Shown: positions 27,085 to 36,808, counted from the stretch's first letter. The stretch: DNA of 64,000 nucleotides from Candidatus Bathyarchaeota archaeon (GCA_963833575.1 CAWHXY010000008.1:128001-192000); one strand, 5' to 3'. Program-made: numbers and translations. Notes: generated by a model from the sequence alone, not told the origin.

Positions 27085-28173
27085 TTACCTTGTAATTTTA
27101 GCCTGCCGCACCGTTTCTAAACAATCTTTAGCTTCACTATTATTTGCAAAATATCGCCTAACAGGCTCCAATATATCTGCAAGTTCGGTTGCAACGCCAT
27201 TCTTCAAGTCCATCGGATGAAGTTTACCTTCTGCGTAGACTGATTCGAGCTCTTGGAAGCTTTGAAGCTGTATGGTTCCTCCAAATTTTGCTGGACGCTC
27301 AATTGTGAAGACTGGTTTTTCTCGGAAGATAATGTATTTACAAATGTCAAGTATTGGATTAAATTTGATGGTTTTTTCCGGACAGAAAGCTTTTGCCATT
27401 TTCTGCTTTATTTCTTCAGGAGAATCATAGATGAAAATGCAAGTTTGAGGTTTGCTCTTTGACATTTTGGCTGAAGCTACTGCTTCTTTTTCTTGCCCTT
27501 CTGGGATTGGCCAAATTTTAGGTTTCTCTAAACCCTGAAGCAAATGGTGGTGAACACATGTGGGTTTCCAGCATCCTATTTTTTCACCTATCTCTCTTGC
27601 AACCATGTTTGCTTTTCGCTGGTCCATGCCTAACTGGCAAATTTTTACCTTCATATGAAAAATGTCTGCTACCTGCATTGGAGTGTAGAGGTAGTCTGAA
27701 ACGTAATGGGCCTCGGTTTCTTGTCTTCCCGCAATTTCTAATGTTCGGGTAGTCCGGGCTATGGTTAGGTTTTTTGCAATGATGACGGTTTTAGCCCAGT
27801 AGTCAATGTCTTTGTAGAGTTCATCTGAATAGATAAATTCAACTTTGTCGCCAGGGACCCCAAGAGCCAACCACGAGTGTCTAAAAAGGTCGGCTGCTTT
27901 GCGGATAAGAGGCAGGTCGCCACCAAGTTTGTTATTTAGCCATGCGTGCCATGTTGCCAAAAAAGCTTTGAAATGGATGCCTGCCTCAGCGAAGTCTTTC
28001 ATTTTATACGCACAAATAACGCCAGTTCCCAAATGCGCCAAACCAGAAGGTTCCCAACCATTATAGGCTACGGGATGCTCTTCTTTTTCAAAAAGGCTAC
28101 GCAAATCTTCTGGTGTAACAACTTCTTCCGTAGGCGGTCTGCAGATTAATTCAACTTTCTTTTCTATGTCCAA
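27085..28173 (-). CDS. tyrS: Tyrosine--tRNA ligase
   Basis: YNGWEPSG.AHLG, Y.PMQVAD, GMDQRK, KMSKS. Confidence 0.95.
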   Translation of the reverse strand: MDIEKKVELICRPPTEEVVTPEDLRSLFEKEEHPVAYNGWEPSGLAHLGTGVICAYKMKDFAEAGIHFKAFLATWHAWLNNKLGGDLPLIRKAADLFRHSWLALGVPGDKVEFIYSDELYKDIDYWAKTVIIAKNLTIARTTRTLEIAGRQETEAHYVSDYLYTPMQVADIFHMKVKICQLGMDQRKANMVAREIGEKIGCWKPTCVHHHLLQGLEKPKIWPIPEGQEKEAVASAKMSKSKPQTCIFIYDSPEEIKQKMAKAFCPEKTIKFNPILDICKYIIFREKPVFTIERPAKFGGTIQLQSFQELESVYAEGKLHPMDLKNGVATELADILEPVRRYFANNSEAKDCLETVRQAKITR

Positions 28174-28445
28174 ATTGCACGCATCTTCCCTGTGTTTCCT
28201 ATTTCTAATGTAAGTGTGGAACTTAAAAATTTAGTACATCTTTATGTATTTAGCTTATCTTTGGTTCAAGTTTGCATTGTTTCCACTAGATAAATAAGAA
28301 ATGATGGTTGTGGGATATGACAAGAAGAACAACAACAGATGGAATTGCCATTTTTGAACAGTTTGTTTTCGATTGCTTTTTTGATTTAGGGTTTGACAAT
28401 GTATTCATTTGTTTTTTAGTTTAAATTAATTCACGTGAAATTTTA

Positions 28446-28477
28446 TGTGTATTCATTAACCCGTGGGAAAAGGTCAT
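28446..28477 (+). repeat. Cassette-boundary element, C type (weak copy)
   Basis: AACCCGTGGGAAAAGGTCAT, 4 bp from the stop codon at 28482. Confidence 0.55.
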
Positions 28478-28481
28478 TGAC

Positions 28482-29255
28482 TTAGTTAGTGGTCTTTCGA
28501 TCCCTAAGCACCACAACAATAAACAAAACTGAAAGAAACAATGGCAAAATTGCTAACAAGGGAATCTCTGGAACGGTAGGCGTTGGAGTTAAGGTAGCTG
28601 TTGGAGTTAAGACAGGTGTTGATGATATTGTTGGGGTTGGATGAGGAGATGCAGTGATTGAAGTAGAAGTTGACCCGTTGGCTATGGTTATGGTTTGTGT
28701 GTTGCTCCAACCGCTTGATTGACCTGTAAAGTCTTCAGCACCATAAAGGGAATAAGGGGAAGGAACCGTTATCCAATACCCTATTGTTGCTTCTACTTGA
28801 AAGTCCACTTCACCACCAGCAGTAACTTGGGTCCAAATTGGAGCGTATGAACCATTATACAGGGTCACCTCATAGCTGATGACCGTGTATTCAGAATTAC
28901 TCGCAGGAACCCATGTGGAAATTGTATTCCATTCGTTGCCGTTGCTGAAATGTCCTTCTTCCTGAACGTTGTACGTCAAGCTAAGTGTGGTGCCGTTCTC
29001 AAGAGCGTTCGCATTAAAAGCTTGGTTTAGAATCACAATCTGCACCGTGTCGTTGGCATACGTGTGCGTTACGGTCGCTCCAGTATCTGTATTTGTTGTG
29101 TTCACACTGTAAGATGATTAAATGTATGTTACACTAAACTCTGGAGCCGATGGTGTGGGTATCGACTGAGCAAATGCGGGTTTAACGATTATAAGACTTG
29201 AGACAGCTAAGAGAACAATAAGAATTAATGAGAAACTCTTGCTGATACTGCCCAT
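28482..29255 (-). pseudogene. Secreted surface protein with Thr/Pro linker and PEF-like C-terminal anchor, interrupted by in-frame TAA
   Basis: MGSISKSFSLILIVLLAVSSLIIVKPAFAQSIPTPSAPEFSVTYI* (stop 29118-29120) continues in frame into ORF 28482-29105 ending VPEIP-TM-RDRK. Confidence 0.75.
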
Positions 29256-29356
29256 GTTTAGTATTAGGAAACTGTAGACGATAAAAGGCTGCTCGTAAAA
29301 CTCTCTTGACTGAAATTAGTCAAATTTTCTTGACTTGGAGTGTTTACGATTGGAGT
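29253..29356 (-). promoter_or_regulatory. Shared about 100 bp upstream module (copy 1) with AGTCAA-N6-TTGACT-N6-AGTCAA array and TATA-like TTTTAT
   Basis: Near-identical to 35980-36082; both end exactly at an ATG. Confidence 0.8.
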
Positions 29357-29443
29357 TGAACTCAAACCCTCCGGCGATTTAGATGGGGAATCAGATTGAA
29401 CCCACACTCCTATGGAGACATCACATGCATTTCCCCTTTTTTT
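29355..29443 (+). repeat. Cassette-boundary element, A type with GTTGAACTCAAACCCTCC extension
   Basis: GGGGAAT..TTGAACCC..TGGAGACATCACATGCATTTCCCC-T7. Confidence 0.8.
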
Positions 29444-29446
29444 GTT

Positions 29447-29689
29447 CTAAGAAGAGTTCTGTTTTGTTTTTTTGCTTCTTAGCAGTTTCATATAGAACTT
29501 TCCAAATAAAGAGATAACCAAAACAATCCAAACAGAACTGATTCCAAATCTAAACACACCAAATGTGATTATGGAACTAGACAATAGGAACCCCAAGAAT
29601 ATGTCAAACAAAATAGAACCCAAAACTGCAACTGAAACATACTTTAGAGTACTCAGCATTTTAGAACGGGATGTTACGGGATTTTCCAT
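29447..29689 (-). CDS. Small two-TM membrane protein
   Basis: 80 aa; tail RSKKTKQNSS shared with 33863-34165. Confidence 0.65.
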   Translation of the reverse strand: MENPVTSRSKMLSTLKYVSVAVLGSILFDIFLGFLLSSSIITFGVFRFGISSVWIVLVISLFGKFYMKLLRSKKTKQNSS

Positions 29690-29836
29690 CGAAACAATCT
29701 CTAATACTTACTTCTTTACACCTTGCTTAAAAGATTTTAAAAATCTCTGCTTTTCGCTTTTTGGAATTTTTGAACTTTTCCCTTTATTGAAGGGCGCCGA
29801 GCTGACATTGCTTAAGGATTTTTTCCGTCAAGATGG

Positions 29837-29870
29837 TAGGAGACTATACGCTCAACCGTGAGAAAAGGTT
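29837..29870 (+). repeat. Cassette-boundary element, C type
   Basis: TAGGAGACTATACGCTCAACCGTGAGAAAAGG; left flank similar to the 34220 copy. Confidence 0.7.
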
Positions 29871-29915
29871 AGTCTATGGAGTTGCTGATTTTCTTCATTT
29901 TTCCAGCCGCCGATA

Positions 29916-30437
29916 TCACGTTGAAGTGAAAACTGGACGGTTAACATAGCGTAACCGCGAATGCAATGCTTCTACCCAATCACTCTTACTTACGTTAAAC
30001 GCTAGTTGGGCTTTGTGTATTGCTTTGCTTTCACTATCTGTTTCTGTTTCCGATGAGAAAATGAAGTCTGTCAGAAAACGTATGTTCGTGGATTCCTTCA
30101 GTGCCTCTAATTGTTTTAGCTCTGCAAACGTTAGGTCAAGTTTGAAAACAATTTGGGTTTTCACATTACTTTTAAGGCTGATGGTTGTTTTCTTAGGAAT
30201 TAGTTTGCCAAGATATAATTCTCCGTTGTCATTTCCCATGTAATTTATTTTAACGTCAAAATTGCTCAATTTCAGAATTTTTTGTGACGTAACAAAAATA
30301 TTAGACGTTGAGAACTTGCCTTCCAAATAGAAATCAAAAGCGAAATTAAATCCTGTACGAATGGCACCCCAATGTCTACTTACAGAAAGAAAAGCAATAT
30401 CTAGTAATACGTCCGAAATTTCAACATAAGCAGACAT
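29916..30437 (-). CDS. Hypothetical beta-rich protein
   Basis: 173 aa ORF between two boundary elements. Confidence 0.65.
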   Translation of the reverse strand: MSAYVEISDVLLDIAFLSVSRHWGAIRTGFNFAFDFYLEGKFSTSNIFVTSQKILKLSNFDVKINYMGNDNGELYLGKLIPKKTTISLKSNVKTQIVFKLDLTFAELKQLEALKESTNIRFLTDFIFSSETETDSESKAIHKAQLAFNVSKSDWVEALHSRLRYVNRPVFTST

Positions 30438-30490
30438 GAAATTTCATCATTCTAAATAGATTTTGTATTACTTAATAATTTTGCTATATA

Positions 30491-30520
30491 TGGGAGGTAC
30501 ATCCAATCGTGGGAAAAGGG
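30491..30520 (+). repeat. Cassette-boundary element, C type
   Basis: TGGGAGGTACATCCAATCGTGGGAAAAGGG. Confidence 0.65.
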
Positions 30521-30541
30521 TCTGAGAGTAGAATTGGAAAG

Positions 30542-31166
30542 TTAGCTTCCAATATTAAGATTGATGGTTCTGTTGCCTGCTGGTGTGTAAACGTGGAAGT
30601 CGCCAGCGTAATATGTTGCGGGAAATTCGATTCCGTCGTTACCCCAAAAGTAATCTATTGTTACATAGTATGTGTGTTCATTTTCCAGATTAACAGAATA
30701 GACGTTATTGTTATAGGCTGATGGATTTGTTGAAAAAGTAAAAGTGCTTGTGGCATTGGTCTTTTCATCTGCAAATTTTATTTGGCGAACAATGTTTCCC
30801 ATTTTATTTACGAATGCCCTGCCAGAAACAATAACTTTAGCACTTAAAACCGAAACAACACAAAGCGTTCTGCATCAATCCTCGCCCTGCCGCTGTCACA
30901 ATGACAGAGTAGTTGCCTGTGGGAGTAGAAGCTGGAGTATTCATAGTTAGAAGGCTCGTAAAGTTGGATGTTCCCACTTCTGGCTCAAAGATTATGCTTT
31001 CATTTGCTTGTGTCATATTACTTAGATTGCTCACTTGACCTGTAAGGTCTGAAATTTGACTATTTAGAGTTGATATTTTGTTATTATAGTAAACTATCGT
31101 TCCAGCAATTGCACTTACAAAAAGTATAACAACTAACAAAAATGAGGCTATTATTTTCTTATTCAT
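30542..31166 (-). pseudogene. Membrane-anchored surface protein split by a frameshift near 30860-30890
   Basis: MNKKIIASF-TM-coiled coil-TPTGNYSVIVTA in one frame; CVVSVLSAKVIVSG...MGNIV continues in another frame. Confidence 0.6.
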
Positions 31167-31256
31167 TCTTACCGAATAAATCAATATCATAAGTGCTTTT
31201 AGTTCTACTCATGGAACATACTGTTCCTTTCTTGGAACGCCGACAGGTAATTCAGG

Positions 31257-31344
31257 GTTGAACTCAAACCCTCCAGCGATTTTAATTGGGGACTGGCTTG
31301 AACCCTCCAGTCAGTGGAGACATCACTCCGCATTTCCCATTTTT
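31257..31344 (+). repeat. Cassette-boundary element, A type with GTTGAACTCAAACCCTCC extension
   Basis: GGGGACTGGCTTGAACCCTCCAGTCAGTGGAGACATCACTCCGCATTTCCCA-T5. Confidence 0.8.
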
Positions 31345-31368
31345 CAGGACCTTTGTTCCAAGATTATG

Positions 31369-31830
31369 TCAAAGTTGCAGTCTCATGCTGTGTCCGGGTT
31401 TGAAACCAAAGGTTTCATACAGCGATTTTCCTGCCTCTGAAGCATCAAGATTTACTCTGTCGTAGCCATGAGCCCTACACCAAGCTATGCCAGTTTCGAC
31501 AATCAGTCGAGCTACACCTCTTCTCCTAAACTCCTTCTCCGTATACAAAGACATCAAATAAGGCACTTCCAAGAATCTGCTGATGGGCAAAGGCGGCTGT
31601 TCTCTAATCCAAATGCAACCACTACCTGCTACCTCCCCTTCCTCTGTTTTTGCGATGAAACCCACAAGTTTGTCCGATGACAACTTTTCCCTAATCCACT
31701 CCAGCGTACGCTCTTCTGTTCCGGTCGCGGACATTACCCGTTCCGGATGAATATCACACCACAGACTCAATCTGTGCTTAACCAGAATCTCAGTATCATC
31801 TAGAGTAGCATATTGAATGTTAAATCTCAT
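31369..31830 (-). CDS. GNAT family N-acetyltransferase
   Basis: LYTEKEFRRRGVA acetyl-CoA motif; ASEAG..LYE.FGF. Confidence 0.9.
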   Translation of the reverse strand: MRFNIQYATLDDTEILVKHRLSLWCDIHPERVMSATGTEERTLEWIREKLSSDKLVGFIAKTEEGEVAGSGCIWIREQPPLPISRFLEVPYLMSLYTEKEFRRRGVARLIVETGIAWCRAHGYDRVNLDASEAGKSLYETFGFKPGHSMRLQL

Positions 31831-31964
31831 AGCTAGACTTTTCCCAAATTATTCTTGATGATGAAATGGACAAGTTGAGTTTAAATCTTGTTCAAAACTG
31901 AACTAATGATAGTTCGTTTAGATTCAAGTTTAAATCATTTCAGGGACCAAACAAGAGAAAAACA

Positions 31965-32018
31965 GGGGTTGATTTGAACCCCTAAGAGTGGAGATGTCAC
32001 TTGCATTTCCCCTTTTTT
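31965..32018 (+). repeat. Cassette-boundary element, A type
   Basis: GGGGTTGATTTGAACCCCTAAGAGTGGAGATGTCACTTGCATTTCCCC-T6. Confidence 0.8.
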
Positions 32019-32104
32019 GTTTAAACAGTTTGGCGCTCCAGTTTTTAAGTAAGGGCATGAATGCGATTTAGTTAGTAACTTTCATGTGATTTGTTTACAA
32101 CCTA

Positions 32105-32383
32105 CTATTTTTTCAATTCAATTAGCATTTTTAACACCAGTTTAAGTGCAGAGTCGTAGCCATCGCAATATTCTTTGCTCGGGTCTTTATCCGCATAGGT
32201 TCGCTCCACAATTTCTTTTCCAATGCCTTCATTAGTTAACTGGATTGAGCCTTCTTTAAGCCATATCAAAGCATCTACATACCCGTGTTCTGAGTCTGAA
32301 AGCTCATCTGTCACAGATGATTCTGCCTTCTGCCTGATTATTTCATCAATCTTTCCTTTTAACTCGTTCTCAACCTTGCTCAC
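32105..32383 (-). CDS. Small acidic helical protein
   Basis: 92 aa; internal duplication GYVDALIWL / GYDSALKLV; GGTGA upstream. Confidence 0.7.
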   Translation of the reverse strand: MSKVENELKGKIDEIIRQKAESSVTDELSDSEHGYVDALIWLKEGSIQLTNEGIGKEIVERTYADKDPSKEYCDGYDSALKLVLKMLIELKK

Positions 32384-32682
32384 TTCTTTTCACCAATTCG
32401 ATTACCTGTTTGTCATAGAGTTAAATAGCTGCCGGCTAACCCAGCGCGCTTCACTAAACCTTAACAAAAAACGCTTGTTAGAACCTTGCTCTTTTCTGTC
32501 AACTTTCAGCAAACTATGCAAAGCGCTAACTGGCTTTAGACATTTCGTATACTCCCGTTGTATTAACTATAAGAATTAAGAAAACTACCGTCCGATTCAT
32601 ACGATAGGGTTTGACAATGTATTCGATGAATTTTTAGCTTAAATTCTTCTATGAATTCAATGAAAAATAAATCGGTAAGCTT

Positions 32683-32727
32683 AGGTTTGATTTGAACTCC
32701 TAAGGACAAGTAGAGATTAACCTTCCT
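32683..32727 (+). repeat. Cassette-boundary element, degenerate A type
   Basis: AGGTTTGATTTGAACTCCTAAG..AGTAGAGAT; left half matches the 31965 copy; abuts the histone stop. Confidence 0.6.
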
Positions 32728-33204
32728 TTAATAATAGTCGAAGAACAATTTTCCTGTGATTTTTCTAGTCGCAGTTTTAATATCTTCCGCTTTAATGGTT
32801 TTTCTTCCAGTCTGCATAGCATAATCGAGTGCTTCTTTAGCAATCTTGACTCCGATTTCTTCAAGTGCTTTTGCAAGTTCTTTTGCTGCTGCTTCACTTA
32901 CTCTGTCAGCACCAGCTTTCTTACACAGCCTGTGCATGGGCGCCACAGCTATTTCTAATTCAGTCATAACGACATCTCCAAGTCCTTTTTTGTTTTTTGT
33001 TAACGCAACCCCTGCTATTATTATTTCAAGCTTCGGCGTTTCCATTGGTTTTTCAAGCTTTTTCATTTCTATAGGCGTTTCAAGCTTTGGTTTTTCAGTT
33101 GGCATTTCAAGCTTAGAAACTTCTGTTTTTGGAGCCTTAAGCATCTTTAACTGATTTTTTGATGTTTCGGTATCTTTCTCGGTTTTTTTCTTGTCGTTAG
33201 ACAA
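32728..33204 (-). CDS. Archaeal histone with long N-terminal extension
   Basis: APMHRLCKKAGADRVSEAA...GRKTIKAEDI histone fold; probable TTG start at 33204 after AGGAGA; internal ATG at 32967. Confidence 0.88.
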   Translation of the reverse strand: MSNDKKKTEKDTETSKNQLKMLKAPKTEVSKLEMPTEKPKLETPIEMKKLEKPMETPKLEIIIAGVALTKNKKGLGDVVMTELEIAVAPMHRLCKKAGADRVSEAAAKELAKALEEIGVKIAKEALDYAMQTGRKTIKAEDIKTATRKITGKLFFDYY

Positions 33205-33281
33205 AGTTAGTCTCCTTGATATAGTCATTAAAATAGATTAATAATATTGTGTTTTGAGTTATCAAGTATTTTCAACTTTGG

Positions 33282-33338
33282 TGGGAATCCGATTGACCCA
33301 GTCAGGTAGAGATGTCACCGGCAAACTCCATTTTTTTT
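33282..33338 (+). repeat. Cassette-boundary element, A type
   Basis: TGGGAATCCGATTGACCCAGTCAGGTAGAGATGTCACCGGCAAACTCCA-T8. Confidence 0.7.
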
Positions 33339-33432
33339 CTGGCATTTAGTTACTATTTGGAGCTGGTGTATTAGTCCTGTCTCGAATCTGAGTAGCTTTT
33401 AATAGACAGAATAATGCCCTATCATACATAGA

Positions 33433-33774
33433 GTGGAAGACTTGCTGTTTAAACACAAGAGCGTTGTTAAAGTCGACTTGGCGGATTTAGATGGCGAAAA
33501 AGAGAATCTCGCCAATTTCTTGCGTAGCCACTTCAAATTAAATTCATCAATAATTCCTAAAGGCTTAGAACTAAATATGGACGATGTTTCGGCTTACTCA
33601 TTGGCAAGAATGGTTAACAAGTTTGTTTATCACAAGAATCTAAACAGCACACATTGGGTTACAGTGGAAAATAACACGGTCAAAATCAATAAGTTCAAGG
33701 GCACCACTAAGAAAAAAGAAAAACACGAGAAAGGCATGCCCCATCAAAACATTACACAAAGTTGGGGACTATGA
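33433..33774 (+). CDS. Ribosomal protein eL22 (L22e)-like protein
   Basis: LANFL...K and S.YSL..MVNKFVYHKNL....V pattern resembles eL22 FL.ERIK and SKRYLKYLTKKYL.K.NL; basic tail. Confidence 0.55.
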   Translation: MEDLLFKHKSVVKVDLADLDGEKENLANFLRSHFKLNSSIIPKGLELNMDDVSAYSLARMVNKFVYHKNLNSTHWVTVENNTVKINKFKGTTKKKEKHEKGMPHQNITQSWGL

Positions 33775-33803
33775 AACGCTTTTCTTCACTATTGCGTTGT
33801 CTT

Positions 33804-33858
33804 AGGTGTAGATATACCCTCCAAACAGTGAGAACTTCACCCGCATTTCCACTTTCTT
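33804..33858 (+). repeat. Cassette-boundary element, hybrid (C-like left half, A-like right half)
   Basis: AGGTGTAGATATACCCTCCAAACAGTGAGAACTTCACCCGCATTTCCAC. Confidence 0.7.
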
Positions 33859-33862
33859 AGTT

Positions 33863-34165
33863 CTAAGAAGGGTTCTGTTTTGTTTCTTTGCTTCTTTGAA
33901 GCCTAAAGATAAAGTAGAGATTTACTGCAAGAACAACCCAAAAGAACAGAAATGGCGCATTCAGCACATTTGAATAAGCGACTGGATAGAAAAACATGTT
34001 AGGCGAGTAATGAGGAGAAATAACAATAGGAGACCAAATACTTACAACATTATTGTTGCCCCATTGATTTATAGTGTTCCAAACGCCATAACTAAAAACA
34101 ACATAAAGTAAACTCAACAAGAGATTAGCCAAAAGCATTAACTTTAGCTGTTTTGACGTATGCAC
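33863..34165 (-). CDS. Small two-TM membrane protein
   Basis: 100 aa; tail RSKETKQNPS. Confidence 0.65.
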   Translation of the reverse strand: MHTSKQLKLMLLANLLLSLLYVVFSYGVWNTINQWGNNNVVSIWSPIVISPHYSPNMFFYPVAYSNVLNAPFLFFWVVLAVNLYFIFRLQRSKETKQNPS

Positions 34166-34219
34166 TCAACATAGGCAATTGTTTTGACCTTGCTTAAAAG
34201 ATTTTTTAAATCAAGCGTA

Positions 34220-34253
34220 TAGGAGACTGTACATCCAAGCGTGAGAAATGCAT
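34220..34253 (+). repeat. Cassette-boundary element, C type
   Basis: TAGGAGACTGTACATCCAAGCGTGAGAAATGCAT. Confidence 0.7.
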
Positions 34254-34362
34254 GCTTTGGAAGCAATTGGTTGTCCAGAAAACTGGACTAAACTTTCTTA
34301 GAGTTATTTTTTGGTCTACAAAAGAGGGATTAAATAACTTGGATACATGACAACTTTGAGGC

Positions 34363-35220
34363 ATGGCAAACGTGGAAGACCAAAGTCAGGTTGAACGTGA
34401 CAAGCAACAGGCTGAAATATTTGATGCATTAGGACATCCAACACGTATACAAATACTAAAAGTTCTAAGAGAAGGAGCAGTTGGTTTTGCAGAATTGAAG
34501 AAGAAAACAGCCATTGAAAGTAGTGGACACCTACAGCACCACTTAACCAAACTCAATGGATTGATAAAGACCGATGAATATGGCAAATACTGTTTATCCG
34601 ATGAAGGAAAAGATGCGTTGCTTACCGTTCAAGCAGTAGAGAATGCATCGCAAAAAGACGAAACAAAAGAGAAGGTGAATAGACGATATTTTGGCAAAAG
34701 ATTAAGCTTAAAACCAGTTGCCATTATACTCATGACTCTATTAATTGCAAGTACAGCAGTTGCAATATATGAATACAATCAAATAGTACTTCTTAACAAC
34801 AGAATTAATGATTCGAACAATGGATTAGTCCTGAACAATGCAGGTTATTTGCCGGGGTCTAAACTATACGTCATTTCAGCAAACGCCAGTTATGAAACAA
34901 TTAATGGAAAAGGATGTTTTGTAGTTGATGCCACTGTGAGAAATGACTACACTTCCCAAGAACCACCACCGATGGATAATTCGGGCATTAACAGTACAGG
35001 AACAGCTTATTTCGGCTTAACCGCTATAATGTACGAAGGACACAAGGTAATCTCTTCAGAAGATATAACTAGTGTCGGTTCTTCACCATTAGGAGTACCT
35101 CAGAATAGCTTAGAAAGCGGTCAAACTGACGTAATCCAAATTGATATGGCAACGTCAGACCATACCATAGATAGCTATTCAATATTCCTCATTGCGATTG
35201 CAGGGTACCCAATCCCATAG
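34363..35220 (+). CDS. Membrane-tethered ArsR-type wHTH regulator with extracellular domain
   Basis: IFDALGHPTRIQIL..F.ELKK..SSG.LQHHL.KL, central TM, beta-rich C-terminus. Confidence 0.85.
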   Translation: MANVEDQSQVERDKQQAEIFDALGHPTRIQILKVLREGAVGFAELKKKTAIESSGHLQHHLTKLNGLIKTDEYGKYCLSDEGKDALLTVQAVENASQKDETKEKVNRRYFGKRLSLKPVAIILMTLLIASTAVAIYEYNQIVLLNNRINDSNNGLVLNNAGYLPGSKLYVISANASYETINGKGCFVVDATVRNDYTSQEPPPMDNSGINSTGTAYFGLTAIMYEGHKVISSEDITSVGSSPLGVPQNSLESGQTDVIQIDMATSDHTIDSYSIFLIAIAGYPIP

Positions 35221-35280
35221 TAAATGGGAGAAATGGATAAAAATAAAGACTTCTCGCAATAGTTTCTTGACTAAAACTAA

Positions 35281-35982
35281 TCAAACTTTCTTGACTGAAA
35301 TTAGTTCCTTACTATTCTGATTTCTTTTTCTAACTGTTATCAAGTATCCTGTTCCAAAAGCTACTATTAACGCGCCGATTATCAGTAAATATGTGATAGT
35401 TGTGTTCCAAGCTGCTCGTAAACTGAAATAGTAATCTGGAGGATAATAATTGAGGCTTGTTGCTAAATTTATAGCCAATATGGATAGCCCAAGTAGCATT
35501 ATAGTTGCTCCTCCAATTATTATGATATAACCAACTTTACTTCTAACTTTTGATCCGGCAATTATTCCAGAGATAATAAAAAACACACCAGCCATCAAAA
35601 AAGAGAAGAAACTAAGTGCCCAATATGTTTGAAAATCGCTCCAACCTATTCCGAATTCACGTGTGCCTATTAGTGCTACAGCCAATTTGTACGCTTCAAT
35701 ATTGATTAAGGTGAACCCAACAGTTATTGATGCGTAACTCCATTTGTTTCTGATATTTCTTAAATAAACTGTTCCTATAACTACAAAAAATGCTCCAGCT
35801 ATAAGACAGAAAGAAATAATCGGAACGGCAAATTCGTAAAAAGCAGTATAATTGAGATAATTACTATTGTTGATTTGCAATTCAAGCAAGAACGTAGCTA
35901 TTGCAAAAAAAACCAGTAAAAAGCCTGTAACTGAAGACACGTAACCCCATTTATTTCTAACCTTCATTTCCATGGTTTCCAT
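35281..35982 (-). CDS. Six-TM membrane protein with threefold internal repeat
   Basis: Repeats KVRNKWGY / NIRNKWSY / KVRSKVGY each followed by two TMs. Confidence 0.75.
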   Translation of the reverse strand: METMEMKVRNKWGYVSSVTGFLLVFFAIATFLLELQINNSNYLNYTAFYEFAVPIISFCLIAGAFFVVIGTVYLRNIRNKWSYASITVGFTLINIEAYKLAVALIGTREFGIGWSDFQTYWALSFFSFLMAGVFFIISGIIAGSKVRSKVGYIIIIGGATIMLLGLSILAINLATSLNYYPPDYYFSLRAAWNTTITYLLIIGALIVAFGTGYLITVRKRNQNSKELISVKKV

Positions 35983-36082
35983 GCTTATATTAGGAAACTA
36001 TAGGCGATAAAAGGCTGCTCATAAAACTCTCTTGACTGAAATTAGTCAAAGTTTCTTGACTTAGCTTATTTACGCTTGGAGT
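35980..36082 (-). promoter_or_regulatory. Shared about 100 bp upstream module (copy 2)
   Basis: Near-identical to 29253-29356. Confidence 0.8.
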
Positions 36083-36097
36083 GCTCCCTACAGGAAG

Positions 36098-36370
36098 TTA
36101 ATGATAATATTTCCATAAAAATAGAATAGTTCCAATTATTCCGCCTATAAAAGAGAAAATGCCAAAAATTATGATGGAAGTACCAGCCCAATATGCTGGT
36201 GTGATTCCGTTTCTCATGGGACCAAACATTGAATTAAACATCGAGTTATTGGGCTGTGTGTACGTATAGCCAAAAAGAGCAATAACCGAGGAGCCAACGA
36301 TAAACGAGAAAAACCCTGTAGCAACAGCCATTAAACTAATAGTGCGAAGTCTGCCCTGCTTCAATTCCAT
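36098..36370 (-). CDS. Small two-TM membrane protein
   Basis: 90 aa, two hydrophobic segments. Confidence 0.6.
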   Translation of the reverse strand: MELKQGRLRTISLMAVATGFFSFIVGSSVIALFGYTYTQPNNSMFNSMFGPMRNGITPAYWAGTSIIIFGIFSFIGGIIGTILFLWKYYH

Positions 36371-36449
36371 TTTTCGCCTTCAGCGATTGAGATGATAGAA
36401 CTATTTGTGGCTTAAATGGGCATCTGAGAATCCATAGGCATAGCAAGTA

Positions 36450-36504
36450 GGGGAACGCATTGAACCAACATCGAAGTGAAGACATCACCCGCATTTCAAT
36501 TTTT
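36450..36504 (+). repeat. Cassette-boundary element, A type
   Basis: GGGGAACGCATTGAACCAACATCGAAGTGAAGACATCACCCGCATTTCAA-T5. Confidence 0.75.
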
Positions 36505-36553
36505 GTTTGATTTTTGCCTGAATTTGGAAATTTAGTACATTTTTTTTTCAAAT

Positions 36554-36808
36554 TTACCATATTTTAGGCTTAATCCTTTTTGTCAAACGAATCATGTATC
36601 TTTTCTTATCGACATTTTTTATGCGGCTGTCAATTAGTCCTTGTTTTTTTGCTTCTTCTATAACTTGGTCAAATGAAACGGGCTGAGGATTTTCTGTTTT
36701 TTTGTTTGTTATAATTATCCAGATTTCGTGATATCTATTTTTGTTTTCTTCAAGAAACTCTCTAAGCGCTGTCAACCTTTTGGGTTCAAAAGTCACTGAT
36801 TCAGCCAA
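36554..36808 (-). CDS. Short protein resembling the N-terminal half of YdeI/OmpD-associated proteins
   Basis: LREFLEEN....EIW....KK....V.F...IEEA...G.IDS....D.....R pattern. Confidence 0.55.
   Translation of the reverse strand: MAESVTFEPKRLTALREFLEENKNRYHEIWIIITNKKTENPQPVSFDQVIEEAKKQGLIDSRIKNVDKKRYMIRLTKRIKPKIW

Follow-up and report, generated by a model that had tools for sequence, protein, structure and literature searches.

Arrays of small gene units in Bathyarchaeia separated by copies that join tRNA gene 3' ends to a conserved module

Genomic islands that integrate in the 3' part of a tRNA gene regenerate that gene, and the displaced fragment marks the far end of the island, as described for Islander in the cited sections of PMC4383910. 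For the tycheposons of Prochlorococcus, the cited portion of 10.1101/2020.12.28.424599 describes successive insertions that push older elements inward, with partial tRNAs and decayed elements scattered. The CIMEs (cis-mobilizable elements) of Firmicutes have lost the integrase and kept their attachment (att) sites, and are stacked by newcomers integrating at the resident att site, according to the cited part of PMC5704250. The archaeal integrons reported so far are canonical, with IntI and attC, and the sections of that report cited here mention neither tRNA nor Bathyarchaeia (PMC9668308). In the present study, a 64,000-nucleotide (nt) stretch of DNA from Candidatus Bathyarchaeota archaeon (GCA_963833575.1, CAWHXY010000008.1:128001-192000; the window, for short) was analysed for an intergenic element, the A-type copy, which is repeated there in one orientation and belongs to a family in which the 3' end of a tRNA gene is joined to a conserved module of about 24 nt.

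The window corresponds to C8:128001-192000 of an assembly of 2.75 Mb in 8 contigs (genome G000). In a preliminary description of its sequence, an integron-like array of single-gene cassettes had been proposed, separated by a co-oriented site of its own type and served by a recombinase encoded elsewhere. The analysis points to another origin of this layout: with a probability of about two in three, an A-type copy is a recombination junction, neither a gene nor a folded site, in which a displaced tRNA 3' end meets the arm of an element, and the arrays arose by serial site-specific integration of very small units that carry no integrase. The literature search returned no account of an arm module that is common to, and abuts, displaced fragments of many tRNAs, and none of single-gene units below one kilobase.

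Composite anatomy and distribution of the A-type copies

A sequence-only covariance model (R1) was built from 29 copies of G000 and run over the whole window with filters off. Six strong A-type matches were found (E 6e-18 to 6e-8), all on the + strand, together with a seventh, weak match at ~32676-32717 (E 0.23), and outside 28283-36511 the window gave nothing below E 0.09. The A-type copies were recovered at the same places by direct-repeat finding and by alignments, and the motif GTGGAGAYRTCACNNGCATTTCC, with up to 3 mismatches, occurred 3 times in the window vs 0 in 100 shuffles. For a second element, the C-type, the core CCGTGRGAAAAGG occurred 3 times when up to 1 mismatch was allowed (mean of 0.13 in shuffles), and a fourth, looser copy was present at 34220. 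Nine of the 11 copies of both types were located 0-90 nt from the stop codon of a minus-strand open reading frame (ORF), and those at 33282 and 34220 were located between divergent genes. The preliminary description had listed 11 copies, all facing the same way whatever the orientation of the genes, mostly just past a stop codon and absent from the housekeeping parts of the window, and all of this was borne out, with six strong and one weak A-type copy and four C-type copies on the + strand; co-orientation regardless of gene orientation was also observed in the loci of relatives. Its treatment of the A- and C-type as one related element was not confirmed, as no alignment or model joins them.

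Read on the opposite strand, an A-type copy consists of an A-run, the conserved module of ~24 nt (GGGAAATGCGGGTGAYRTCTCCAC), ~7 variable nt, and then a piece of a tRNA gene that comprises the T-arm, the 3' strand of the acceptor and a few post-gene bases. The consensus first given for the A-type fits the copies of G000, and its order-wide form is GGGGtGGGATTTGAACCC-n7-GTGGAGATGTCACCCGCATTTCCC-T6; the left half of this order-wide consensus, when reverse-complemented, is a T-arm followed by the 3' strand of the acceptor stem, and the module is the part best conserved across the order. Left halves with 25 nt of flank were compared by local score with the 3'-terminal 40 nt of each of the 44 G000 tRNAs, with 300 random 60-mers as the control (median 7.5, maximum 12). 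R1 found 78 copies in 44 loci from relatives, and at least 45 of them scored >=13.5 against tRNA 3' ends. The matched tRNAs were those for Pro, Ala, Leu, Glu, Cys, Gly, His, Ser and Arg, with several matches reaching the CCA end, and in arrays fetched later 13 of 24 copies scored above 12. As read from the sequences of L068, L023, L100, L016 and L103, the likeness ended within the T-stem or immediately 5' of it, around positions 46-52. In G000 the commonest subtype resembled the tRNA-Cys end and, in 11 of 29 copies, had a further conserved stretch (AAC(T/W)NNAAC/TCCTC…) on the tRNA-like side, and the first A-type copy of the window (29377-29447) was composed of a decayed tRNA 3'-end remnant on the opposite strand, the conserved module and the T-run.

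In the Cys-type copies, bases from downstream of the gene itself stand in place of CCA, and because of these bases the origin, like that of att sites, lies at the DNA level rather than in reverse transcription. Retro-derived tRNA copies (from a primer-binding site or by template switching) were excluded on the same ground, the Cys- and Leu-type copies carrying gene flank and no added CCA. A 37-nt repeat, which includes 8-10 nt of downstream flank, is common to contig C1, where it stands with an integrase, the core and tRNA-Cys, and to C5:108622, where the order is flank, 37-nt core and a module-like sequence ending in a T-rich run. The site is not wholly of its own type, as had been proposed: the left half derives from tRNA gene 3' ends, which makes it the kind of junction left by tRNA-targeting integrases. 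Just outside the junction at C5:108622, two gene pairs that by eye resemble PIN-domain toxin/antitoxin pairs were observed (C5:106700-108500; L116 8773-10457).

With iterated nhmmer searches, 29 copies at E < 0.01 and 35 at E < 0.1 were obtained in G000. They were located in five clusters (C8 21.9-27.5 kb, C8 77-80 kb, the window, C7 627.7-631.8 kb and C6 74.8-82.3 kb) and as singletons, and the copies were co-oriented within each cluster. R1 matched 26 of the 41 genomes searched (19/24 in the genus; 7/16 genera of the order), so that scanning with covariance and hidden Markov models (HMMs) places the family in G000 and in related Bathyarchaeia. An exact 21-mer pattern gave 46 stretches over the genomes of 185,579 species, of which ~28 were titled Bathyarchaeota or Bathyarchaeia and the remainder was about the chance expectation (estimated at ~17); an exact-pattern scan of viral contigs gave 2 stretches, neither of which matched R1. 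In all 24 loci with two or more copies (some loci overlap), the copies were on one strand, and the nearby genes on the T-run side were in the opposite orientation 29 times vs 19 times in the same orientation. The spacing of adjacent copies had a median of 1.3 kb over 32 intervals, of which 14 were shorter than 800 nt, the smallest being 134 nt (C7, no gene). Many gaps measured 0.4-0.8 kb. Each unit comprised one or two genes, which could face either way, and lacked an integrase. The A-type family is found across an order of Bathyarchaeia in co-oriented arrays.

The position of the copies could also be that of a regulatory or terminator-type intergenic element (REP-like, i.e. a repetitive extragenic palindrome, or a U-run small RNA gene), with the clustering due to gene families duplicated together with their flanks: 34 of the 35 matches in G000 were intergenic by crude gene calls, a T-run closes every good copy, most copies of the window stand just past a stop codon, and several copies were duplicated together with a paralogous small membrane-protein gene. 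However, the T-run cannot terminate the preceding gene, because it is mostly on the strand opposite to that gene, and hence the wrong one for termination. No conserved fold was found either: RNAalifold predicted no pairs on 29 copies; two proposed helices, an outer and an inner one, had 66.9% of cells paired vs 64.2% in shuffles, with 31 of 500 shuffles as high; and 10 copies folded as single-stranded DNA had z-scores of -2.29 to +0.57, 8 of them between -0.9 and +0.6. Rfam gave no match at gathering score over the window, and over 28300-36700 none fell on the elements even when matches up to E 10 were admitted. Together with the lack of copies beside the housekeeping genes of the window, and with a left half that is a real tRNA gene piece with its flank and that a regulatory element would leave unexplained, these results make such an element improbable.

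The T-arm helix was not maintained on the 78 copies (65.3% paired vs 64.5% in shuffles), which fits decaying or hybrid fragments. ARAGORN, in default mode, with introns and relaxed, called no tRNA at default and gave spurious calls only when relaxed, so no tRNA gene is present in the window by this program. For a miniature inverted-repeat transposable element or a REP, the only inverted feature was a 6-nt GGGGAA/TTCCCC pair, which was 69% paired, no more than in shuffles, and no target-site duplication was visible around the copies. A C/D-box small RNA was rejected, since box-like strings occurred in one copy only, and a short ORF was rejected, since the spacer lengths between the conserved blocks differ among copies. 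A possible resemblance to an ORB-like origin box was also considered.

A canonical integron array of the CALIN kind (cluster of attC sites lacking an integron integrase), with divergent attC sites, would share with the window one gene per site, co-oriented sites and no integrase nearby, and integrons with attC have been reported in archaeal metagenome-assembled genomes in the cited sections of PMC9668308. It is nevertheless scarcely credible here and is already refuted for the features tested. The copies folded as single-stranded DNA formed no hairpin beyond the shuffled controls, no covarying stem was found, and the consensus lacks the RYYYAAC…GTTRRRY pair of R boxes: ATTGAAC is one base off RYYYAAC, and no GTTRRRY is present at the 3' end, where GCATTTCCC is followed by the T-run. 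In attC it is the structure that is conserved, whereas in the A-type copies it is the sequence, and their tRNA-derived half has no attC counterpart. That the sites are not attC-like had been noted from the start, and the results agree.

Array heads at tRNA genes and travelling units

Eight array regions were fetched because they held several R1 matches, one of them also because of an integrase fragment. In 5 of the 8, an intact tRNA gene was present at the predicted end and in the predicted orientation, namely tRNA-Leu(TAG) in G021, G013 and G012, tRNA-Ala(TGC) in G020 and tRNA-Cys in G002. In G000, the copy C4:465241 was located 2.7 kb 3' of tRNA-Leu(TAG). The cargo next to tRNA-Leu varied between genomes: G021 has a GNAT gene there, G012 a flavodoxin gene, and G013 two small ORFs and then a nitroreductase gene, none of them an integrase. 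Of the cases examined, only C1 of G000 (integrase beside tRNA-Cys, in a broken frame) and a 163-aa (amino acid) integrase fragment in G002 fit an element with its integrase inside, next to the regenerated tRNA.

In G013, tRNA-Leu was followed by a stack of three units, the first of which is closed by a 50-nt Leu copy that lacks the module, whereas the second and third, of ~0.9 and 0.6 kb, each end in the module and a Leu-type fragment. Copies of the tRNA-Leu(TAG) 3' end without the module were present at L108 3574-3623 (50 nt, 98%) and L106 4987-5015 (29 nt, 97%), so other element families use the same tRNA-Leu(TAG) end.

One insertion was mapped precisely. The empty site in G012 reads …CCCACCCCCTGCACCA, directly followed by ttatgttaaag…, that is, tRNA-Leu(TAG) and then the native flank. 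In G021, the left junction has the same tRNA followed by ttatgcgcaag…, the GNAT gene, the A-run and the module, and the right junction has GGTTCAAGTCCCGCCCACGCTACCA, directly followed by ttatgttaagg… and then by 306 nt that match the native flank of G012 at 84%. The insert at tRNA-Leu(TAG) in G021 is thus 663 nt long, contains a single gene and is bounded by an imperfect, decayed 30-nt repeat of the tRNA end, which, in this one example, is the signature of an integrase-type insertion of a single-gene unit.

Single-gene pieces of the window's array were observed in other genomes with other neighbours and at higher identity than tyrS, the gene to the left of the array. The unit of the 92-aa gene (~31987-32010 to 32665) was 86.8-93.1% identical in 11 loci of nine other genomes, with the non-coding flanks included in six, while the tyrS identity in those genomes was 75-77% (89% in G044), i.e. 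below that of the unit in most of them. At these loci an R1 match was present at the stop-codon side in 5/11, at the other side in 1/11 and absent in 5/11 (L041, L044-L047); in L041 a degenerate copy is visible only in the alignment, and the R1 match is ~1 kb away. The tRNA-like halves beside the 92-aa unit differed between genomes. The unit of the 173-aa gene (29845-30519), which extends from C-type to C-type copy, was 87% identical to G023:C8, the GNAT unit (31351-31912) was 88% identical to G013:C6, and the 113-aa unit (33333-33819) was found at 81-88% identity in four other loci.

These travelling units bear on a true integron-like system, in which the module would be the site and the T-loop or T-run the crossover, with a dedicated recombinase acting on any tRNA identity and the tRNA ends serving merely as building material. 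Such a system would account for a module that is the best conserved part across the order, for arrays that mix tRNA identities or lie away from tRNA genes, for the 92-aa unit joined to different tRNA-like halves in different genomes, and for the very small size of the units, with 14 of 32 spacings below 800 nt and some units geneless. It would also account for the identity boundaries at the T-run, which were observed in K3/K4, for the 92-aa unit in L038, L041 and L042, for the GNAT unit at 31351 and for the 113-aa unit at 33333. We nevertheless consider it unlikely: no co-occurring recombinase was found and no circular cassette was seen, the sole precisely mapped insertion is bounded by a tRNA-end repeat as in classical integration, and the module boundaries could equally stem from homologous exchange between near-identical 30-nt stretches. 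The insertion in G021 places the crossover in the tRNA end, and several of the identity boundaries place it at the T-run instead.

The island between tyrS and the 84-aa gene

All A- and C-type copies of the window were located in a variable island of ~8.3 kb, which most relatives lack (Table 1). When the 12 kb around the island were searched against 30 genomes of the genus, the tyrS and 84-aa genes were found directly side by side in at least 11 of them (G001, G003, G011, G012, G016, G017, G020, G022, G041, G042 and G045). The gap between the two genes was 1.25 kb in G013 and 5.4 kb in G044, the latter being a different island at the tyrS site with other genes and no A- or C-type copies. The homology to the tyrS flank of relatives stops at 28236-28242 and restarts at 36519-36564, and at the empty site of G003 a single copy of a closely similar sequence (AAATTTAGTATGT) was present in place of the pair of 13-nt direct repeats. 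The array in the window is probably a piece of an array of the kind described above, now away from any tRNA gene and lying between tyrS and the 84-aa gene, with the 13-nt direct repeat on either side and no intact tRNA gene at its own end.

Contigs of DNA reads were examined from two runs, X1 and X2. In X2, a peat metagenome run, only the island-less form was observed, with joins from 28236 to 36563 and from 28239 to 36577 and with 24 and 35 other letters between. A contig of X1 joins window position 34203 to 28459, and its inserted letters are also present in the C-type copy of C7 (C7:11772-11725). Excised circles had been suggested as a thing to look for in the preliminary description, and no free circular form was seen.

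Table 1. Features of the island and its flanks (positions in the window).
Feature	Position	Strand	Remarks
Toprim protein gene			left of island, alongside tyrS
tyrS	27085-28173	-	left of island
Direct repeat, left copy, 13 nt, AAATTTAGTACAT	28227-28239	+	overlaps presumed tyrS promoter region
C-type copy 1 (…CCGTGGGAAAAGG)	28446-28474	+	8 nt from stop of ORF 28482-29105 (-)
Surface/secreted protein gene	28482-29255	-	Thr/Pro-rich linker, C-terminal membrane anchor
A-type copy	29377-29447	+	E 6e-18; abuts stop of ORF 29447-29689 (-)
80-aa small membrane protein, cargo	29447-29689	-	no Pfam family; paralog of 33863-34165
C-type copy 2	29837-29869	+	left edge of 173-aa unit common to G023
173-aa protein, cargo	29916-30437	-	no Pfam family
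C-type copy 3	30491-30520	+	
Cargo ORFs of 86 aa (30542-30802) and 117 aa (30837-31190)	30542-31190	-	no Pfam family
A-type copy	31279-31346	+	E 1.6e-15
GNAT acetyltransferase, 153 aa, cargo	31369-31830	-	
A-type copy	31964-32025	+	E 4.4e-13
92-aa protein, cargo	32105-32383	-	no Pfam family
Degenerate A-type copy	32676-32730	+	E 0.23; left half recognisable, module lost
Histone-fold protein, 166 aa, cargo	32728-33228	-	repetitive N-terminal extension
A-type copy	33277-33340	+	E 5.9e-8; between divergent genes
113-aa protein, cargo	33433-33774	+	no Pfam family
A-type copy	33805-33863	+	E 6.1e-9; between convergent genes
100-aa small membrane protein, cargo	33863-34165	-	paralog of 29447-29689
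C-type copy 4, looser	34220-34250	+	between divergent genes
Winged-helix (DUF7347/HTH_20) membrane protein, cargo	34363-35220	+	
Membrane proteins of 233 aa and 90 aa, cargo	within 34363-36370	-	
A-type copy, last	36443-36511	+	E 6.4e-14; T-run ~17 nt from right direct repeat
Direct repeat, right copy, 13 nt, AAATTTAGTACAT	36528-36540	+	
84-aa gene	36554-36808		right of island

The surface-protein gene at 28482-29255 was broken into ORFs of 207 aa and 45 aa, and its paralog at C7:628703-629527 (82% identity) is a single ORF of 274 aa; the split gene is either a pseudogene or an assembly error. In the histone-fold gene, a 27-nt tandem repeat at 33024-33114 lies within the N-terminal extension and codes for a repeated …PKLE… motif.

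A 95-nt upstream repeat precedes membrane-protein genes of the island, with copies at 29262-29356, 35223-35317 and 35988-36082 (91% and 60% identical). Copies adjoin the upstream side of the minus-strand start codons at 29255 and 35982, and the 60% copy (35223-35317) has no start codon downstream and overlaps the 3' end of the ORF at 35281-35982. The repeat contains repeated GTCAAGAAA and TTTGAC words and the TATA-like CCTTTTATCG, and from this content it is probably a shared promoter or operator. In addition, a 41-nt repeat (TAGGGTTTGACAATGTATTC…) was observed at 28387-28427 and 32605-32645 (85% identical), where the second copy is upstream of the 92-aa gene and kept in the G045 copies of the 92-aa unit, and the first has no gene behind it.

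For the C-type, an HMM of 6 copies matched only the window, G023 and three weak copies of mixed orientation on C7, and no likeness to any tRNA was seen, by eye only. The three weak copies (C7:9423-11772) are located ~8-10 kb from a 496-aa tyrosine recombinase (C7:19451).

Origin of the arrays and comparison with known systems

For the A-type arrays, the following mechanism is proposed. A circular element that carries a copy of a tRNA end would be inserted by a tyrosine integrase into the 3' part of the tRNA gene; the incoming copy would restore the gene, and the old end would be displaced to the far side, where it would abut the arm of the element, i.e. the module and the A/T-run. Repeated insertion at the same or at displaced tRNA ends would then give a head-to-tail, co-oriented array in which each unit is composed of cargo and module. 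As the units carry no integrase, they would have been moved by an integrase encoded elsewhere or would have lost their own, and they were either born small or are decay products. In this proposal the catalysis by an integrase, the mobilisation in trans, the function of the module (an arm or a binding site) and the route by which the window's array came to tyrS are all presumed.

The recombinases found do not single out a candidate. As had been described before, the island encodes none; of the five PF00589 matches in G000, none is within 20 kb of the window's array, and no serine recombinase was found in that genome. One Y1 transposase was present in G000 as a broken copy, 22 kb from the C7 cluster. 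The integrase beside tRNA-Cys (C1:152-1445, L111) stops at …TKTSKTL, and the usual …LLGHKNIKNTLIYTQL motif with the catalytic Tyr is in another frame, which is due either to a frameshift or to a sequencing error. Homologs of this integrase with open frames of 424-443 aa were found, and G000 has further integrases of roughly 480-496 aa. An integrase of G023 near the homolog of the 84-aa gene was set aside, as it is beside tRNA-His, in another context.

Several observations weigh against integration at tRNA genes as the origin of the copies. In the complete genome G003 no integrase was present within 30 kb of any copy, and a recombinase co-occurring with the element, which the preliminary description had suggested looking for, was not found: the C1-type integrase family does not co-vary with it, being absent from 4 R1-positive genomes of the genus (E 1e-10) and present in 5 of 5 R1-negative ones. 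The lack of a free circular form belongs here as well. In G000 the tRNA likeness is weak, with only 5 of 29 copies above the control maximum of 12, and most arrays are not beside a tRNA gene; because of this weak likeness and the lack of a tRNA gene in the window, the tRNA origin of the window's array follows from family homology and not from its own sequence. The arrays mix tRNA identities (in L109 a Pro(GGG) end without mismatch is found near tRNA-Ala, and L105 combines Leu- and Ala-type ends), which would not be expected if one tRNA gene had been the target of all insertions in series. Between copies of the same 92-aa unit, conservation of the module and of the 7-nt spacer is poor. Finally, in a recent duplication between C7 and C6, 100% identity over ~390 nt starts right after the T-run and the element bodies differ, so the crossover point is unsettled and may sit at the border of module and T-run.

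Taken with these points, serial integration of minimal units at tRNA ends is still the reading to which about two chances in three are given. A tentative extension of it, which we hold with little confidence, is a tRNA-based functional analogue of the integron: cassettes would carry a minimal attP, made of a T-arm/acceptor mimic, the ~24-nt module and an A/T-tract, and would be captured, stacked and exchanged in trans by chromosomal tyrosine integrases, with unlike tRNA types recombining through the T-loop or the module. The earlier proposal of site-specific gene capture survives in part, in that the island is variable and single-gene units recur; the layout itself is attributed to tandem accretion at tRNA genes and not to an integron platform.

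Bathyarchaeia are abundant and uncultured, and their gain of accessory genes is poorly known. The module provides a simple sequence marker for variable gene arrays across the order, and the smallest mapped cargo unit is one gene in less than 0.7 kb. If the units move in trans, they would represent a second, independent integron-like route of gene capture, which acts on tRNA ends and not on folded attC, and a candidate for a minimal archaeal integration system; if they are only decay products, the arrays would represent ordinary, though unusually tidy, island accretion.

Among the known systems, Sulfolobus SSV-type (spindle-shaped virus) integrases provide an archaeal case of tRNA-derived flanks, as chromosomes keep cargo flanked by tRNA-derived direct repeats after loss of the integrase, and the integrase gene of SSV-type elements is split by integration. 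Unlike in SSV-type capture, nothing here shows a split integrase; the module contains ATG, but the spacer length varies between copies.

With Islander islands and tycheposons, the arrays share the intact tRNA gene at array heads, the co-oriented displaced ends and an insertion with 30 nt of the tRNA end repeated at its two borders. They differ in the size and content of the units, which here are of ~0.4-3 kb with one or two genes and without integrase, replication or excision genes, in the ~24-nt module and A/T-run that abut the displaced fragment whatever the tRNA, and in the mixed tRNA identities, the many arrays far from tRNA genes and the archaeal host order (Bathyarchaeia). With CIMEs they have in common units without integrase that carry att sites, and accretion; unlike these, which in the cited part of PMC5704250 are decay products of large integrative and conjugative or integrative and mobilizable elements and few per site, the minimal units here number in the tens per genome and have a single arm motif in common.

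Like integron arrays and CALINs, the arrays have co-oriented sites with one or two genes each, accessory cargo of unrelated kinds, no neighbouring integrase, and cassettes that recur in different arrays. In contrast to integron arrays, the attC fold and boxes are absent, and the site, one half of which comes from a tRNA gene, is conserved in its sequence; the cassettes have their own upstream regions and lie in either orientation, and no attI platform was found, nor an IntI within 20 kb of the window's array. The class of mechanism proposed is thus an ordinary one, tRNA-targeted integration with accretion, and it is the form that is unusual: minimal, order-wide and integron-like in outcome.

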